From the NCBI GenBank assembly GCA_012798115.1, contig JAAZNV010000006.1:155971-219970 (forward strand): 64,000 nucleotides of DNA, read 5' to 3'. Source of the stretch: a candidate division WWE3 bacterium (GTDB taxonomy: Bacteria > Patescibacteriota > WWE3 > UBA101185 > UBA10185). Under the pieces are notes generated by a model, which ran no database searches, was not told the origin of the DNA, and saw nothing but the letters and a program-made list of their open reading frames with translations. A program made the position numbers and the translations under genes. Numbering within the stretch: the stretch's first letter is position 1; every line of letters begins with the position of its first letter. This document shows positions 18,655 through 56,887 of this stretch, in pieces.

Positions 18655-20040
18655 TTGAATATGAATTCAAGTGTAAAAAACATCTTCTTTTACTCCTTTT
18701 TAGTATTTTTCTTTTCTTGGGTATTTGTGAATAGATTAGGAATTAATAAATTAGCTATTCAGTCAGAAGATACTATTCCAACTATGTTTTTACCTGTGGC
18801 TATAATAAAAGAAAAGACAATGAATTTAGATTCTTACTATTGGATGATGTTAGGGAAGTATCCTCATCCAGATGACAAAAGCTTTATTAGAGGTCTTACT
18901 CCTTTTTATTTAAAAAAGATAGGTAATCACTACGTATCTGCATTTCCAATAATTACAGCTCTAATATCTCTTCCTATATATTTTCTTCCTTTAAAGCTTG
19001 GGATGCCTATTACTTGGGATAACTTAATAATATTATCTAAGATATCTTCTTCCCTTATAGTTTCATTATCTGGAGTATTTCTTTACATTCTTCTAAGGAA
19101 ACATTTCTTAAATGATGAAAAAAAAGCATCTCTTTTAACATACGTTTATCTTTTTGGGACAGTAAACTATGCAATGATTTCTCAATCTATGTGGCAACAT
19201 GGAACCTTAATGCTCTTTTCTATTCTAGGTTTGTATTTTATTCTAGAGTTTTTAAAAGAAAATAAGTTTAAACCTTCAAATGCTTTTCTTGGAGGATTGT
19301 TTTATGGTCTTGCTATTTTATCAAGACCAACTGCAGCTTTAGCTTTTGCTCTTGTTCTTGTTTTAATGTTAGTGAAGATACGAAACATAAAAAACTATAT
19401 CAAGGCAAATATATTTGTATTTGCTGGAATTGCTTTAAACATATTATTTTTCCTTTGGTATAACAACAAATACTATATAGGTATCCAAAATCAAGGTTAC
19501 TCTAGTCAAATATTTTCTAGTTGGTTATCTCCATTTCCAATAAGTCTTATAGGAGTTTGGTTATCTCCAAGTAAAGGGATACTTGTATATTCTCCAATTT
19601 TTATCTTTTCATTTGTTGGTTTTTATATAGCTATGAAAAAAGGAGTAGAGGAAAATTCTCAATATTTAATTTATTTCTTAGTGGTTGTTTTACATACGCT
19701 AATAATTAGTTTTTGGAAACATTGGTACGGTGGTTATTCCTTTGGTTACAGAATGAGTTCAGATATTATTCCTTACCTTATTCTTCTTATGGTTCCTTTT
19801 CTTAATTCCTCATTTTATGAAAAGTACCAGAAGCTGTTCTTGTTTTTGTTTACCATATCTGTTTTTGTTCAAATATTTGGAATAATTTTCTTTGATGGAA
19901 TATGGCATGCAGCATATGATAGGGGATTTAGAGATACATCCTGGCTTTGGTCGTTAAAAGATTCAGAATTTATGTTTAATATAAGAAGAGTAATGGTGAA
20001 ACTAAAGTTTCTTCAAAGAGCTTGTCCCAAGTGTTTATAA
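18655..20040 (+). CDS. Polytopic membrane protein, putatively a GT-C-type glycosyltransferase.
   Basis: At least ten transmembrane segments are predicted ('LGLYFILEF', 'GLAILSRPTAALAFALVLVLM'). This is the last plus-strand gene before the inserted cassette. Confidence 0.45.
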   Translation: MNMNSSVKNIFFYSFLVFFFSWVFVNRLGINKLAIQSEDTIPTMFLPVAIIKEKTMNLDSYYWMMLGKYPHPDDKSFIRGLTPFYLKKIGNHYVSAFPIITALISLPIYFLPLKLGMPITWDNLIILSKISSSLIVSLSGVFLYILLRKHFLNDEKKASLLTYVYLFGTVNYAMISQSMWQHGTLMLFSILGLYFILEFLKENKFKPSNAFLGGLFYGLAILSRPTAALAFALVLVLMLVKIRNIKNYIKANIFVFAGIALNILFFLWYNNKYYIGIQNQGYSSQIFSSWLSPFPISLIGVWLSPSKGILVYSPIFIFSFVGFYIAMKKGVEENSQYLIYFLVVVLHTLIISFWKHWYGGYSFGYRMSSDIIPYLILLMVPFLNSSFYEKYQKLFLFLFTISVFVQIFGIIFFDGIWHAAYDRGFRDTSWLWSLKDSEFMFNIRRVMVKLKFLQRACPKCL

Positions 20041-20072
20041 TCCTTTAGGGTTGAGCGTACGGATTTTACTCT

Positions 20073-20088
20073 ACGATCTAGAAACGAG
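20073..20088. repeat. Partial third copy of the element ('ACGATCTAGAAACGAG'), 3' of the last cassette gene.
   Basis: It shares the GATCTAGAAMC core with copies 1 and 2. Confidence 0.3.
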
Positions 20089-20123
20089 ACAGTAATGCTC
20101 GCGAATATAACATTAAATATAAT

Positions 20124-20669
20124 TTACTGGTTGCACAGTTCCTGAAATTTCAGCATTTGATAGTAAAGGGATTTTAATGAATTGTAGTATTCTTGGTCGG
20201 GGTTCTGATAGTATGTATCCCTAGAATTTGGCTGTTTCTCTTTGGCAGAGCGCCATCTATAGCATCCATCGGGCAACTTCTTTGGATTGCCACTATTAAT
20301 ATATTTTATTGCACAGCCTGATATACCATTCGCAAACATTTCATCAGCCTTCTCATAGAAAATTTGATACATCCTAACGTACGTTAGGCATGCCCAAAGC
20401 TTATTTTGAAACTCGTCTTTTGTCTTTACAAGGTCAGTATTACTCTGCTCCAATCTCGTAATTCTATTCTGCAAATCTTGGATATGTTCATTTATGGAAT
20501 TATTTGTCTCATTGTAGGACTTGTTATATGTCTTATAAGCTCTAAATGCGTAGTAACTAACTATACAAGTTATACCTACAAGCATTATTGTGATAATAAC
20601 AACTCTAAAAGCCTTGCCCTTAATCAGGTTTGTAATAAAATTTTTAATTTCTGCTAGTTTATTTTTCAT
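20124..20669 (-). CDS. Membrane-anchored coiled-coil protein with a Cys/Tyr-rich C-terminus. Hypothetical.
   Basis: 'FRVVIITIMLVGITCIVSYYAF' forms an N-terminal transmembrane segment. It is followed by the heptad-like 'IQDLQNRITRLEQSNTDLVKTKDEFQNKL' and then 'GCAIKY...DGCYRWR'. Confidence 0.55.
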   Translation of the reverse strand: MKNKLAEIKNFITNLIKGKAFRVVIITIMLVGITCIVSYYAFRAYKTYNKSYNETNNSINEHIQDLQNRITRLEQSNTDLVKTKDEFQNKLWACLTYVRMYQIFYEKADEMFANGISGCAIKYINSGNPKKLPDGCYRWRSAKEKQPNSRDTYYQNPDQEYYNSLKSLYYQMLKFQELCNQ

Positions 20670-20713
20670 ATTATTATCTTACTACTTCTATTTAGGCGGT
20701 GGGTAATAGCACT

Positions 20714-20744
20714 CTCTGGCTGAGCATGTCGGTCTAGAACCAAA
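20714..20744. repeat. Short repeated element, copy 2 ('CTGGCTGAGCATGTCGGTCTAGAACCA'), just 3' of the SEC-C gene.
   Basis: Seen by direct alignment with copy 1. Confidence 0.45.
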
Positions 20745-20758
20745 ATGAAATTATTCTT

Positions 20759-21571
20759 CTAATGTGCCTTACCGTGGCATCTCTTATACTTTTTCCCGCT
20801 ACCACATGGGCAAGGTTTATTACGTCCAACCTCAATAATATCGCTGCCAGTCGGTTTTTTAGCTTGTTCTAGGAAAATTCCAGCTGCGCCAATCATGAGA
20901 CCACTTTGATTAGTAATCTTCTTTGTAGGATAAGATGGAATCAACGTCCATAGTAATTCATGACCAATCTGTCGTATGCTCGCTAACTCGGCGCCAGTTA
21001 GATCAGTCCAATTTCTGCCATCATTACTAACTTTCCAACCCAGAGAATTCTGTCGAGTGAGCTCAATGTACTTCTTTTCAAGCTCTGGGTCGACATGAGC
21101 ACCTCCGTCCTGGTTTGCCACATATAGCACAATATCTTTTCTGGTAAAGCTGTTGCTATTAGCGTCAGTAAATATTTCCTCATGCCAATAATCATCGAAA
21201 TTGAGCATCCTGGTTTGGCCAAATGGTAGATCATCCAAATATGGAGTATATCCGCTTTTACTACCCGAAGCTATTGCTAGGAGAGCAGAGTAACTACCGA
21301 CTCGAACCATATTTGGTTTGTCTTCTTTTGGCACAGCAGTACTTAAAAATTTACCAGATTTCAATCCAAGCTGACTAAGTAAAGAATGGGATTTTAGTGT
21401 GTCATGGACGAGAATGCGTATGCATGTAGCCATTGGCTTGGCCATTAGGGTATTCCCAGTATCGTATGCATCAGCCAAACGACTTAATAACTCGAGCTGT
21501 TCATCTAAATTTCTCTTTAATTCGACTTGTGTCTGCCTAATATTAGTCATACTATACCTGGCTGAGTACAT
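20759..21571 (-). CDS. Protein with a C-terminal SEC-C zinc-binding motif and an uncharacterised N-terminal domain.
   Basis: The C-terminal '[16 protein letters not shown]' matches the SEC-C motif (as in the SecA C-terminus and YecA). The N-terminal ~240 aa match no family I recognise. An alternative start is the ATG at 21550. Confidence 0.6.
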
Positions 21572-21585
21572 AGATCTAGAACCAC
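21557..21585. repeat. Short repeated element, copy 1 ('CTGGCTGAG...TAGATCTAGAACCA'), just 3' of the STAS-like gene.
   Basis: It shares about 22 of 27 nt with the copy at 20716-20744 and contains the palindromes TAGATCTA and TCTAGA. Confidence 0.45.
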
Positions 21586-21601
21586 GCTGACTGCTGATAA
21601 A

Positions 21602-21889
21602 TCAATGTCTGGGATTTCCAAGTCTCAGCTTTTTAAGTAGTTCAAGAGTAGTTTTAACTGATAGGTTTTCGTCGTTTACAAAATGAACACGATTGCCAAA
21701 TCTGTCGATCAGATTAGTAATGAATTCATCTGCCCAGGAAGGTGTGAAAGTGGTAACACCTTCAAAATCAATATCCAATACTTCGTTTTCAGACATATTT
21801 CTCAACAATGGTTCTATGGCTGCAAGTGCCTCACGCCCATCCTGTCTTGATGTTAGAAGATCTCCAAATTTTTTAAGTTCTATTTTCAT
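21602..21889 (-). CDS. Small STAS-like protein (anti-sigma-factor-antagonist-like). It resembles the DUF4325 family from memory.
   Basis: It is 95 aa, and 'EVLDIDFEGVTTFTPSWADEFITNLIDRFG' resembles the conserved core of DUF4325/STAS-like partners of GHKL kinases. It sits 9 nt downstream of the ATPase gene. Confidence 0.55.
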   Translation of the reverse strand: MKIELKKFGDLLTSRQDGREALAAIEPLLRNMSENEVLDIDFEGVTTFTPSWADEFITNLIDRFGNRVHFVNDENLSVKTTLELLKKLRLGNPRH

Positions 21890-21898
21890 ATTTTTTAC

Positions 21899-22627
21899 TT
21901 AAAATTTAATTAATGCTAAACAGCCACTATAATACAACTCAGTTTTGTATATCTCCATCTTTTTAACTTCGTTATTATCGTTATTAATAGAAACTTTAGC
22001 GCCACCACTGTAGAAGTTTATTTCAATAGCTTTGTTTAATGCTACCTCTAGCACAAATTTAAGCCCATTTCCCCTTGCCTCAGGAGATCTACCTGAGATA
22101 ACTTCAGTAAATGCAACATGCAAAGCATCTTCATCATTTCTAACATCTGGCTTTACTCTCTTTAGCGTCCTTAAGATGCCCTGTCCTCTGTCTGCTAGGG
22201 CTATTTGTCTTTTGTTTGTGTCATACGAAAAGAATACTCCTGAAATATCCGGCCAGTTTCCTAGATTATGATCAAATGAATTATTTCCTATCTCTCCCGC
22301 TATGGCAACAATAAGTGGGTAATACTCTTTTAGATCCTGTAACTTTTCTAGAGCACTTTGTAGTTTTGAAAGTCTTCCTTTGAATTCTGAGCTAGTTGGA
22401 CAATAAAATGTGTTTTCTGGTTCTATTGCAGGACCTAACACCCACTCTGTTGCTAAAGCAAATATATCCTTCTTAAATAATTCTAAATCTGTCTGGGAAT
22501 AGTAACGGTGGCCACCTACACTCTTTTTAGCGGGTAGTTTTCCACTTTTATCCCAGCGTCTAAGTGTAGCGATTGATATACTTAGTTGTTTAGCAGCTTT
22601 GCTTATTGTTAGGTTGTCGTTTGTCAT
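21899..22627 (-). CDS. MerR-type HTH fused to a GHKL (HATPase_c, RsbW/SpoIIAB-like) kinase/ATPase domain.
   Basis: The N-terminal 'ISKAAKQLSISIATLRRWDKSGKL' is a MerR-like HTH. The N-box 'AGEIGNNSFDH', G1 'ADRGQGI' and G2 'ARGNGLKFV' are arranged as in anti-sigma-factor kinases. Start taken at ATG 22627, because the listed start at 22639 is a TTG. Confidence 0.65.
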   Translation of the reverse strand: MTNDNLTISKAAKQLSISIATLRRWDKSGKLPAKKSVGGHRYYSQTDLELFKKDIFALATEWVLGPAIEPENTFYCPTSSEFKGRLSKLQSALEKLQDLKEYYPLIVAIAGEIGNNSFDHNLGNWPDISGVFFSYDTNKRQIALADRGQGILRTLKRVKPDVRNDEDALHVAFTEVISGRSPEARGNGLKFVLEVALNKAIEINFYSGGAKVSINNDNNEVKKMEIYKTELYYSGCLALIKF

Positions 22628-22689
22628 AAATCTATACAATATTTATATCACAATGGATAAATCTATGCAATATTCGTCAAATCTATGCA
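22628..22689. promoter_or_regulatory. Three direct repeats 'AAATCTAT(A/G)CA' in the leader/promoter of the HTH-GHKL gene. Putative operator.
   Basis: Copies lie at 22628-22638, 22659-22669 and 22679-22689, spaced 31 and 20 bp apart. The first abuts the start codon. Confidence 0.4.
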
Positions 22690-22968
22690 TGTTTCTGTCT
22701 TTGTCTATCAACAAAATGTGTTTCAGACTACACAGCACCGTAAGCCTTCGATATAGTTGGGTCTTAAAGACTAGGACTTATATACCTTCTATAACTCTTA
22801 TGATCGTTCCCTTAATATTCTTTGGAAACTTTGAGGAAATCTCTATAATTAACAAAAATGTTAACTTTGACGGAACATGTTTCTATGTTTTACCTATAGG
22901 TAAAAAGTTCTATATTTAGATAAAAACAGGCAATTTTCCCTGATATACTCTATAATTAAGAAGTAGTC

Positions 22969-53491: not shown

Positions 53492-54124
53492 TTAGTGATT
53501 GTATCTTCTAACAATTCCTGTTACCACACCCTGAACCTTAACTTGATTTGCATCAACAATGATTGGATCCATATTATCGTTGGCAGGTTGAAGTCTTATC
53601 TTTCCATTTTTTTCTTTATAAAAACTTTTTAAGGTAGCAAAACCATCATCAATTAAAGCTACAACTATTTGACCGTTTTCTGCAGTTTCTTGTTGTTTTA
53701 AAACAACATAATCTCCATCCATTATTCCTTCATTTATCATTGAAGAACCTTTGACTTGAAGAACAAAGCATCTTTTTGATTTAGAAACCATGTCGGGGGA
53801 TACCATTACTGTAGAAAGAGGATTTTCTATAGCTTCTATTGGCTCTCCAGCTGCAATATATCCAACTAATGGAAGCTCTATTGCACTTAAGTTTGCATTT
53901 ACAGACACATCAACAATTTCAATTCCTCTTACTGCTCCTTCGTATCTTTTAATAACACCTTTTCTTTCTAATGCTTGAAGATGTTCATGAACAGTTGCAA
54001 GAGAAGATAAGTCCATAGAATCTGCTATTTCTTGCAGAGTAGGTGAGTACCCATTAATCTGAATATACTGAGAAATAAAATCTAAAATTTGTTTTTGTTT
54101 TTTATAAAGAGTTACGGGGCTCAT
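53492..54124 (-). CDS. lexA: LexA repressor, an S24 peptidase.
   Basis: There is a winged HTH ('LQEIADSMDLSSLATVHEHLQALERKGVI'), a cleavage-site region 'IAAGEPIEA', Ser 'KGSSM' and Lys in 'KSF...'. The Shine-Dalgarno 'GGAGT' precedes ATG 54124. Confidence 0.85.
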   Translation of the reverse strand: MSPVTLYKKQKQILDFISQYIQINGYSPTLQEIADSMDLSSLATVHEHLQALERKGVIKRYEGAVRGIEIVDVSVNANLSAIELPLVGYIAAGEPIEAIENPLSTVMVSPDMVSKSKRCFVLQVKGSSMINEGIMDGDYVVLKQQETAENGQIVVALIDDGFATLKSFYKEKNGKIRLQPANDNMDPIIVDANQVKVQGVVTGIVRRYNH

Positions 54125-54162
54125 TTTTACTCCTTTTAGAAGAATAAACTTACGGATTTTCT

Positions 54163-54176
54163 TCGTATTTATACGA
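54163..54176. promoter_or_regulatory. Palindrome TCGTAT-TT-ATACGA in the lexA promoter region. Candidate operator.
   Basis: 6-bp inverted arms lie 39 to 52 nt upstream of the lexA start. It does not match any LexA box I know. Confidence 0.25.
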
Positions 54177-54203
54177 TACCGAATCTTATACGAATATGTC
54201 AAG

Positions 54204-54246
54204 AGGTAAAAAATTAGCACCTAGAAAGTTTTTTTATTCTAGGTGC
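54204..54246 (-). terminator. Rho-independent terminator on the minus strand, between the small gene at 54268 and lexA.
   Basis: A perfect 10-bp stem 'GCACCTAGAA'/'TTCTAGGTGC' with a 10-nt loop is followed on the minus strand by 'TAATTTTTTA'. Confidence 0.5.
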
Positions 54247-54871: not shown

Positions 54872-56887
54872 ATGTTTAAAATATCTTCTCCTTTCAAACC
54901 AACTGGAGATCAACCACAAGCAATAGAAAAACTAACTAAAAACTTAGAAAAAGAAATTAAAGATCAAGTTTTATTAGGTGTAACCGGTAGTGGTAAGACA
55001 TTTGTAATGGCAAATGTAGTACAAAATATTCAAAAGCCAACTCTTGTAATCTCTCATAACAAAACTCTTGCAGCACAGCTCTACCAGGAATTTAGAGAGT
55101 TCTTTCCGAACAATGCTGTTGAGTACTTTGTTAGTTATTATGATTACTATCAACCAGAAAGTTATATTCCTTCAACTGATACATATATAGAAAAGGATTC
55201 TGCAATAAATGAAAAAATAGATAAACTAAGATTATCTACAACAACATCACTCATGACAAGAAAAGATGTAATTGTTGTATCTTCTGTTTCTTGCATTTAT
55301 AACTTAGGGTCTCCAGCAGAATATAGCAAAGTAGCAATTGAGCTGAGGAAAGGAATGAAGTTAAGACTTAATGATTTGCTTATGAGGTTATCTCAAACAC
55401 ATTATGATAGAGCTGATTACGATTTTAAAAGAGGAACATATAGAGTAACTGGTGATGTTATTGATATTTTTCCAGCTTATCAAGATCAAGCAATAAGACT
55501 TGAAATATTTAATGATGTACTTGTAAATGTTTCTTATTTTGATCCCTTAACTGGAAATGAAACTAGGAATACATATGGTGTAGATACTGGGATGATTGTA
55601 ATTTACCCGGCAAAACACTATATAACTGCTCAAGAGAGATTCAAAGATTCAGTAGAAGATATAAGGAAGGACTTACAGCTTAGGTTAAAGGAATTAAGGG
55701 ACAATGGAAAGCAGTTAGAAGCATATAGGCTTGGACAAAGAACAAATTATGACTTGGAGATGATGCAAGAGCTTGGATATTGCAAAGGAATTGAAAACTA
55801 CTCTAGATATTTTGATGGCAGAAATCCAGGAGATGCACCATATACTCTTCTTGATTTCTTTCCTAAAGATTACTTGGTGATAATAGATGAGTCTCACATG
55901 ACGGTTCCTCAAGTAAGAGGAATGTTCAATGGTGATAGATCAAGAAAGGAAACTCTGATAAACTATGGTTTTAGACTTCCATCCGCTCTTGATAATAGAC
56001 CTTTAAATTTTAATGAGTTTTTAAGTAGAACAAATAGAAAAGTTTACGTAAGTGCTACGCCAGATGATTGGGAAATAGAAAGATCTAAGGGTGAAATCGT
56101 TGAACTTTTGCTTAGACCAACAGGAATTGTTGATCCTAAAGTTACCATTCTTCCCACTAAAGGACAGATTGATGATCTTGTAGAAAGAATAGAAGAAAAG
56201 GTATCAAGTAGACAAAGGGTTCTTGTTACCACTCTTACTAAGAGAATGGCAGAAGAGTTGTCCTCTTATCTTAAAGAAAAGAACATAAAAGTTACATATC
56301 TTCACTCTGATGTAGACACTCTTGAAAGAACAGATATTTTAGATGATTTAAGAAAGGGAGAATATGATGTTCTTGTTGGAATAAATTTGTTAAGAGAAGG
56401 GCTTGATCTTCCTGAAGTGTCTTTAGTTGCAATACTTGATGCAGATAAAGAAGGCTTTTTAAGATCAGAGACATCTTTAATTCAAGTTATGGGTAGAGCT
56501 GCAAGACATGTTCAAGGAGAGGTTGTTATGTATGCTGATAATGTTACTGGAAGTATGAAAAGAGCAATTAATGAAGTAGAAAGGAGAAGGGATATACAAC
56601 TTGAATACAACAAGGAACATGAGATAACACCTCAGCAGATTACTAAGCCAATAAGAGAAAAGTTAATAGATCAACAGTTAGAAGAAGAACTAGAAGGAAA
56701 GAAAAAAGACGCATTTATAGATGTAGATTTCAGACAACTTCCACCTTATGAACTGAGGAAAGTAGTGAGAAACTTAGAGAAAGAGATGAAGTATGAAGCT
56801 GAAATATTAAATTTTGAAAGGGCTGCTGTTTTAAGAGATAAAATTAGAGATTTGAGGAAGTTATTTAATGATGTTAGTGGTTGTTGA
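54872..56887 (+). CDS. uvrB: Excinuclease ABC subunit B.
   Basis: 'GVTGSGKTF' (Walker A), the beta-hairpin region and the C-terminal UVR domain '[14 protein letters not shown]' are present. Confidence 0.92.

Follow-up and report, generated by a model that had tools for sequence, protein, structure and literature searches.

A two-gene module of an HTH-GHKL protein and a DUF4325 partner, probably a remote relative of CapK-CapS and VapK-VapS, inserted with unrelated passenger genes in a WWE3 glycan locus

We examined a 64,000-nt stretch of DNA from a candidate division WWE3 bacterium (Patescibacteria; contig JAAZNV010000006.1 of assembly GCA_012798115.1, positions 155,971 to 219,970), referred to below as the window, in which four minus-strand genes break into a run of plus-strand genes at a glycan locus. 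The block that they occupy is a mosaic insertion. Its first two genes, genes 1 and 2, encode a protein in which a helix-turn-helix (HTH) domain is fused to a putative GHKL kinase domain and a small STAS-like protein of the family DUF4325, and they are a self-contained module, widespread in Patescibacteria. The other two, genes 3 and 4, are independent single-gene passengers that only this strain has acquired downstream of gene 2. We regard it as probable that the module is a remote relative of two kinase-substrate systems, CapK-CapS (CapKS) and VapK-VapS-VapC (VapKSC), and that it is accompanied here by genes unrelated to it. An earlier note, made from the letters of this stretch, had taken the four genes for one cassette in which a kinase and its STAS partner directly control two downstream effectors; the logic of the pair holds up in our analysis, and the four-gene unit does not.

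Genes 1 and 2 are strictly paired. We fetched 80 genome loci that carry gene 1 and 9 metagenome loci; gene 2 comes directly after gene 1 in every genome locus but one, which is cut by the contig end (79 of 80), and the two are also adjacent in the 9 metagenome loci. The gap between them is mostly 4 to 14 nt and is 9 nt in the window, as had been read before. Gene 1 has about 5,000 database matches, mainly from Patescibacteria, and relatives of it are encoded in more than 530 species-level genomes, nearly all of them patescibacterial. The pair usually occurs in one copy per fetched locus and is strongly conserved (47 to 90% identity). Its surroundings are variable: 377 neighbor proteins fell into 313 clusters, the largest of which reached only 6 loci, and the Pfam matches of immediate neighbors were housekeeping genes mixed with mobile or defense genes. 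Neighbor clustering and Pfam searches across the fetched loci found no conserved third gene, sigma factor or phosphatase beside the pair. In none of 89 other loci was gene 3 or gene 4 found at a distance of 8 kb or less from the pair. Since only genes 1 and 2 travel together, the four-gene "cassette" is wrong as a unit. A tblastn search of plasmids and phages with the gene-1 GHKL domain returned nothing, and only one viral contig encoded a gene-1 relative. The block and the parts of the module are located in the window as follows.

20041..22844, minus strand: inserted block relative to syntenic relatives; left edge directly after the stop codon of a 461-aa membrane-protein gene, right edge about 125 nt short of the first glycosyltransferase gene
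21899..22627 (open reading frame [ORF] listing 21899-22639), minus strand: gene 1, 242 aa from ATG 22627, with TTG 22639 as the listed start; winged HTH of the BldC/excisionase type (MerR superfamily), a linker of about 50 aa and a predicted CapK/VapK-like GHKL kinase domain
21602..21889, minus strand: gene 2, 95 aa; DUF4325 STAS-like protein, the presumed kinase substrate or partner
22628..22689, minus strand: putative operator made up of three direct repeats, ahead of gene 1

The product of gene 2 belongs to DUF4325 (Pfam, 3.3e-8, 33.5 bits against a cutoff of 23), which bears out the family named in the earlier note. Pfam's STAS and HATPase_c_2 models do not match genes 1 and 2. The motif DFxGVxTF(S/T)PSWxDEF is kept across 79 gene-2 sequences, and Ser51 is invariant in all 79. 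This serine is the candidate phosphorylation site.

At its N terminus, the gene-1 product matches Pfam MerR (3.2e-11) and HTH_17 (1.7e-9) over aa 10-56, and the nearest PDB sequences to its HTH are the BldC structures 6ama and 6amk. The MerR label given to it previously is thus right at the level of the superfamily, and it is not a classical MerR: the domain is of the BldC/excisionase type and is likely to bind direct repeats. The true start is probably M5 (ATG 22627), as judged by homologue lengths; the listed TTG sits inside the third operator repeat. The GHKL domain that was also claimed for this protein goes unseen by Pfam, NCBIfam and phmmer or hmmsearch against the PDB, and it finds its support elsewhere. 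In an AlphaFold model (predicted local distance difference test score [pLDDT], 86.5), about 50 aa forming two helices separate the HTH from the GHKL domain, and Foldseek matches the C-terminal ~160 aa to the ATPase domains of GyrB, ParE, TopoII and Hsp90 with probabilities of 0.99 to 1.0 and E values of ~1e-4. An alignment of 48 gene-1 sequences has an invariant N-box (E116, N119, N120, D123, H124), an invariant G1 motif (D150xG152xG154) and an invariant G2 motif (G190-N-G-L193). The GHKL assignment is therefore a predicted one, based on the modeled fold, on these N-box, G1 and G2 residues and on the profile similarity to CapK and VapK described below.

An exhaustive HMMER search with the gene-1 GHKL domain found 304 cluster representatives (E ≤ 0.001) among 1.84 billion proteins. 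The clade has two architectures, one of about 240 aa with the HTH and one of about 195 aa without it. In one HTH-less case (L237:1503-2383), a 95-aa DUF4325 gene comes next, with a 4-nt overlap, and AbiEii and rplJ/rplL lie alongside. A second HTH-less form was seen at L235:4001-4588; the GC content of these contigs, 65% (L235) and 52% (L237), is well above the 33% of the window.

The closest characterized relatives come from a recent study of stress-responsive immune regulation. CapK, an HTH-STAS-GHKL protein activated by single-stranded DNA (ssDNA), phosphorylates Ser54 of the repressor CapS, a STAS protein with a winged HTH (wHTH), and adjacent immune operons are thereby de-repressed (Chambers et al., EMBO J 2026, PMC13373217). 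VapK phosphorylates the STAS antitoxin VapS, which releases the VapC toxin (PMC13373217). The same work reports that CapKS pairs control adjacent operons and that these downstream operons vary; Patescibacteria, MerR-type fusions and DUF4325 receive no mention in it (PMC13373217).

We took the sequences of CapK, CapS, VapK and VapS from the source data of that paper. VapS is itself a DUF4325 protein by Pfam (2.7e-17). A gene-2 profile aligned with VapS in hhalign at a probability of 89% (E 2.1e-6) and with CapS at an E value of 1.2e-4, with S51 aligned to the phosphorylated Ser54; against all PDB sequences, its top match was VapS (9z7o_A), at an E value of 0.044. The gene-1 profile aligned with VapK over 128 columns that take in the entire GHKL domain (hhalign E 3.9e-4; hmmsearch, 15.5 bits) and with CapK over 96 columns at 34% identity (hhalign E 4.7e-4; hmmsearch, 6.4 bits), and N120 fell on the catalytic Asn218 of CapK. 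The corresponding values were E 0.14, 38 columns and -1.7 bits for a hand-entered SpoIIAB sequence and E 0.085 and 41 columns for a GyrB sequence likewise entered by hand. From these profile comparisons, the pair appears to be a remote, re-wired relative of CapK-CapS and VapK-VapS with an undescribed architecture. The partner-switching logic of a kinase and a STAS protein proposed in the earlier note fits this relationship, and gene 1 would be expected to have kinase activity.

TGYATAG(A)TTT is found three times ahead of gene 1, each time on the minus strand (22689-22679, 22669-22659 and 22638-22628), and the third copy ends 1 nt before the gene-1 ATG. A promoter-like match spans 22707-22680, and its -10-like hexamer is overlapped by the first repeat, which would fit repression. 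The motif is conserved: in the 160 nt before the gene-1 start of 78 divergent genomes, 65 had at least one copy and 52 at least two. Sites upstream of gene-1 homologues number 139 in the forward and 7 in the reverse orientation, against a background of 0.007 per 160 nt, and the extended consensus is TTGYATAGnTTt. Spacings between repeats are 21 nt (34 cases), 20 nt (11), 10 nt (9), 31, 41 and 52-53 nt, that is, multiples of the helical turn. The array upstream of gene 1 is the only cluster of these repeats in the 64-kb window; there is none before gene 3 or gene 4, and elsewhere in the window only scattered single sites occur, at the level expected by chance. No TGYATAG motif was found upstream of the two HTH-less genes mentioned above. 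BldC, the closest HTH, binds head to tail to direct repeats whose number varies (PMC5859096). By this example, we infer that the array is bound by the gene-1 HTH and that the operon is autoregulated in this way.

A single further operator cluster was found in 875 kb of flanking DNA. It lies ahead of a solo DUF4325 paralogue (L090:14041-14379) that has TGYATAG repeats upstream and no kinase gene; this paralogue is wedged between two paralogous Cys-rich genes of about 585 aa, with a complete module 5 kb away, and resembles either a module that has lost its kinase or an extra substrate.

The direction of regulation, the signal and the binder of the operator are proposed here as follows. The HTH of gene 1 would bind the TTGYATAGnTT repeats head to tail, over its own promoter and leader, and so autoregulate the operon, and the gene-2 protein would dock onto the GHKL domain. 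A stress signal, which in CapK is ssDNA, would trigger phosphorylation of Ser51. Phosphorylation would alter the kinase-substrate complex and hence DNA binding, and transcription of the operon, together with anything co-transcribed downstream, would then change. Genes 3 and 4 would be at most read-through cargo.

The module is an insertion polymorphism at its site. A metagenome scan with the downstream glycosyltransferase as the query yielded 44 loci, about 30 of which are syntenic throughout, with the 461-aa gene abutting that glycosyltransferase across gaps of mostly ~25 to 170 nt. One of them (L099) can be aligned to the window up to position 20040 and again from 22927, and the alignment of another (L098) resumes at 22845. 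Among the 44 related contigs, only L136 and L141 have genes 1 and 2 at this junction. As the earlier note had supposed, the block is a true insertion in an accessory setting, and its GC is raised. The compositional shift that the note reported is real, and smaller than claimed: the GC content of the block is 36.7% (not 40 to 45%), compared with 33.0% for the window and 30 to 31% for the immediate flanks. Even so, no other 2.9-kb stretch of the window has a higher GC content (the block ranks in the top 0.7%), and gene 3 is the only gene that reaches 41% (41.4%).

Other relatives have other inserts at this junction, which makes it a recurrent variable spot. They include a PIN-like gene (L126:2628-3068) and a protein of about 320 aa (L120:6858-7892, L122:4384-5355, L131:6920-7891 and L134:6985-7911). 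L111:6462-7364 is also listed among the junction inserts, and one insert type resembles a split sulfotransferase gene. Within one lineage, the module itself is found in three cargo states: no cargo in L136, another gene in L141, and genes 3 and 4 in the window and in the Logan contig L016, which carries the same arrangement at 99.96% identity.

This variation bears on what the module might control. We think it possible, short of probable, that the pair is a CapKS-like controller of adjacent pathways and that whatever is inserted downstream becomes stress-induced cargo by read-through from the autoregulated promoter. The cargo behind gene 2 changes within one lineage, and the operons downstream of CapKS vary in a like manner. 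Of 72 scorable loci, 43 have a co-directional next gene within 250 nt, and at least 5 of these 43 genes are defense genes or defense candidates. On the chromosome of a Candidatus Peregrinibacteria member (OY970195.1), the oligonucleotide cyclase of a cyclic-oligonucleotide-based antiphage signaling system (CBASS) begins 6 nt after the pair (L047:8001-9905; PADLOC E 6.7e-100). The further defense-type genes are PDC-S01 (L076), a SIR2/prokaryotic Argonaute-like gene (L039), an ABC ATPase (L033) and a RecD-like helicase (L097). However, most downstream genes are housekeeping genes (YchF, TatC, transporters, ribosomal proteins), the next gene is convergent in about one-third of loci, and the operator stands only ahead of gene 1. 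As a side observation, the L047 layout mirrors that of CapKS-CBASS loci, in a candidate-phyla genome.

A second alternative is that the pair is a housekeeping transcriptional switch of Patescibacteria, unrelated to defense (for example, an energy- or ATP-sensing one resembling RsbW-RsbV), that happens to sit at a permissive site. Its breadth across species-level genomes, the single copy usual at each locus, the level of conservation and the frequent housekeeping neighbors would all suit such a role. We consider it unlikely, because the pair is polymorphic at this site (2 of 44 related contigs), lies in a stretch of raised GC and has a different context in nearly every genome; the characterized systems nearest to it act as immune regulators or as a toxin-antitoxin system (PMC13373217), and neither a second operator cluster in the window nor any cluster in the flanking DNA, apart from that of the solo paralogue, marks a regulon.

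More doubtful still is a reading in which the GHKL domain acts not as a kinase but as a GyrB/MutL/Hsp90/MORC-type ATPase clamp, with gene 2 as a regulator or adaptor and not a substrate. The top Foldseek matches are ATPases, the N-box pattern E-x3-N-x2-D is as in GHL ATPases, and Pfam's kinase-type HATPase models fail on gene 1. Yet the domain is small (about 165 aa) and has no transducer domain, the gene-1 profile is nearer to VapK and CapK than to GyrB, and the partner shares a Pfam family with the phosphorylated substrate VapS and has an invariant serine at the equivalent spot.

Several observations, some of them touched on above, count against the reading of the pair as a CapKS/VapKSC relative. 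The best structural matches of gene 1 are ATPases (GyrB, TopoII, Hsp90) and not kinases, and no standard hidden Markov model (HMM) detects its GHKL domain. The similarity to CapK and VapK is weak, with hhalign probabilities of 33 to 36% against single sequences. CapS itself has no DUF4325 match, and S51 of gene 2 is one residue off S48 of VapS in the alignment. No phosphatase partner is seen beside the pair, and most downstream genes in other genomes are of the housekeeping kind. The repeats may be bound by a factor other than gene 1, and since gene 1 lacks the internal STAS domain that is the ssDNA sensor of CapK (W68), the signal may differ entirely. We still hold the relationship to CapKS and VapKSC, with unrelated passengers, to be the probable one.

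The passengers and the short repeats that accompany them occupy the remainder of the block.

20759..21550 (ORF listing 20759-21571), minus strand: gene 3, 263 aa from M8; N-terminal domain and C-terminal SEC-C zinc motif
20124..20669, minus strand: gene 4, 181 aa; membrane anchor and coiled coil; near-orphan
21558..21584: copy A of repeat R, in the gap that separates gene 2 from gene 3
20716..20742: copy B of repeat R, in the gap that separates gene 3 from gene 4
20048..20085: copy C of repeat R, degenerate, right next to the stop codon of the left-flank gene

Gene 3 probably starts at M8 (21550), just past repeat R, again as judged by homologue lengths. Its SEC-C tail reads as described in the earlier note and is supported by Pfam. 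The gene has about 600 homologues, which are solitary and lie beside a methyltransferase, a NERD protein or a HigB/HTH-M78 pair; the family (phrog_7805) occurs in about 19 viral contigs, and some members are without the SEC-C tail. There is a partial match to the defense candidate PDC-S12. The AlphaFold model has a pLDDT of 88.8, and its N-terminal domain gave no convincing match to any solved structure. The residues D155-G-G-x-H159, R200-Q201 and E205 are invariant and H204 is kept in at least 90% of sequences, a pattern that suggests an active site. The product of gene 4 is the same protein as GYA37_01400 from a candidate division WWE3 bacterium. Only four proteins of its kind, itself included, were found among 5.8 billion clusters; the three relatives are in unrelated contexts without gene 3 or repeat R, and no family reaches significance. 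We also considered genes 3 and 4 as a pair in their own right and rejected this, as their homologues never co-occur.

On the minus strand, no terminator-like site was found between genes 2, 3 and 4. With the operator only upstream of gene 1, direct control of genes 3 and 4 could come only by read-through, and the direct control of two effectors that had been proposed for them is not borne out. A dedicated four-gene defense or stress system, with the pair directly controlling genes 3 and 4 as fixed effectors, is very improbable: four same-strand genes with short gaps and no terminator-like site between them, the phage-associated family of gene 3 with its partial PDC-S12 match and the control of adjacent operons by CapKS-type pairs (PMC13373217) speak for it, but none of the 89 other pair loci contains gene 3 or gene 4, each of which is found alone elsewhere, the pair stands at this site without them in L136 and with a different gene in L141, no operator motif precedes either of them, and gene 4 has just three relatives anywhere.

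Repeat R may bear on how the passengers came to be where they are. Copies A and B are identical at 22 of 27 nt, a level that none of 2,000 shuffles reached (maximum, 19). On the plus strand, the layout is CTGGCTGAG-N7-GGTCTAGAACCA, with the near-palindrome GGTTCTAGA(A)CC. The 64 kb contain just three occurrences of the core KTTCTAGAYC, all of them in the block and on one strand, and the copies sit 16 to 38 nt past the stop codons of genes 2, 3 and 4. Copy C alone is a weak, degenerate match (P of ~0.09); its position is that of the single R of L136, beside the same gene end. In L136 (26-52), which has no passengers, this R has gene 2 on one side and the stop codon of the 461-aa gene on the other; in L141 (157-183), an R follows gene 2 and is itself followed by a different gene. 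The repeat is absent from all other loci (1.47 Mb), and viral contigs have 11 exact matches to the degenerate core pattern. Candidate roles as a hairpin, attC site, terminator or known RNA were rejected: the structure does not go beyond that of shuffles, there is no terminator-like site, and Rfam gave no match.

Three cargo states at one repeat in one lineage suggest site-specific capture. We can therefore imagine R as a capture site at which promoterless cassettes are placed behind a stress-switched kinase-STAS promoter, an integron-like platform served by a recombinase in trans, and we give this idea little chance of being right. Like integron cassettes, the passengers are promoterless single-gene units, each with a related short repeat, stacked behind one promoter, and their content varies between close relatives. 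Unlike integron sites, the repeat is only about 27 nt long, has no hairpin and no RYYYAAC/GTTRRRY cores and is present in only two or three copies, and the window genes that were scanned include no integrase or other recombinase. With so few copies, R may be a one-off duplication.

The wider setting of the block agrees in the main with what had been described. Its four minus-strand ORFs break a plus-strand run that spans 42-29346. The right flank encodes three GT4-type glycosyltransferases and a Wzy_C/PMT_2 protein, and further on a flippase and the rhamnose genes rmlBCD, so that the name of glycan locus suits this side; on the left, the 461-aa polytopic membrane protein has no Pfam match. The window has no tRNA, and a tRNA integration site is thus unsupported. 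LexA repressor and UvrB are encoded in the window (53492-54220 and 54872-56887), and the host therefore has SOS and nucleotide excision repair components. The presence of UvrB is of interest in that activation of CapK in Escherichia coli needs ssDNA made by UvrA/UvrB.

GHKL-kinase/STAS pairs were shown to be modular stress sensors only in 2026, with the CapKS immune operons and VapKSC toxin release. The module described here is abundant in Patescibacteria, whose regulation and phage defense are almost unstudied and which are not growable alone; its operator repeats and invariant Ser51 are testable handles in a heterologous host. For part of DUF4325, and for a GHKL clade that Pfam does not see, the analysis points to a likely role. 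It also holds a lesson for annotation, in that a "four-gene cassette" resolved into a two-gene module and strain-specific passengers.

Among known systems, several can be set aside. The classical MerR regulator was rejected: MerR models match only aa 11-56, and what comes next is the linker and the GHKL domain, not a coiled-coil dimerization helix and an effector domain. A classical MerR operator, palindromic within a long-spacer promoter, was rejected as well, the motif here being a same-strand direct repeat (139 versus 7). Membership in the methylation-associated defense system (MADS) was likewise rejected, as only the HTH matches mad1 and there are no other mad genes in the block; the MADS paper describes mad1 as a widespread regulator that is treated as accessory in the detection model to avoid false positives. 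BldC is the closest solved HTH, and the arrays of one to four same-strand repeats at helical-turn spacing fit its mode of binding. It differs in being a 68-residue stand-alone domain, and its consensus, AATT-N4-C, is unrelated.

The SpoIIAB-SpoIIAA and RsbW-RsbV partner switches share with the module a small GHKL domain, in their case that of a serine kinase, and a single-domain STAS partner with a conserved serine. In contrast to them, the module has no linked sigma factor or PP2C phosphatase, and its output domain is covalently fused; the profile similarity to SpoIIAB, for the hand-entered sequence, is at noise level.

VapK-VapS-VapC is closer. VapS and gene 2 both pass the DUF4325 cutoff, and VapK is the best match to the gene-1 GHKL domain; an older note had already coupled PIN.4 VapC genes to DUF4325 genes (PMC5499597). 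The differences are that no VapC/PIN gene stands beside the pair (none is in the top neighbor families), that the 95-aa gene-2 product lacks the C-terminal inhibitory helix of VapS (residues 94-116) and that VapK has a STAS domain and no HTH.

The likeness to CapK-CapS is one of organization as well as of domains. In both, a gene for an HTH-bearing GHKL protein, a kinase in CapK and predicted to be one here, is immediately followed by a STAS-protein gene, the second STAS helix starts with an absolutely conserved serine (S51 in gene 2, S54 in CapS), and the N-box, G1 and G2 motifs align. In both, operator sites lie at the pair's own promoter, where gene 1 would autoregulate as CapKS does, and the downstream genes are variable and at times CBASS. 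Unlike CapK, gene 1 has no internal STAS domain, and the hhalign matches begin at the GHKL domain; its HTH is of the MerR/BldC/excisionase type and not of the CapK type. Unlike CapS, which has HTH_24 at aa 119-159, gene 2 has no wHTH, so that the sole DNA-binding domain is on the putative kinase. The operator consists of direct repeats here and of palindromes in CapKS, and the module is found in Patescibacteria, among neighbors that are mostly not immune genes. If the relationship holds, this clade would be a third wiring of the GHKL-kinase/STAS pair, with the DNA-binding domain on the kinase, a bare STAS protein as the substrate and the sensor domain missing.

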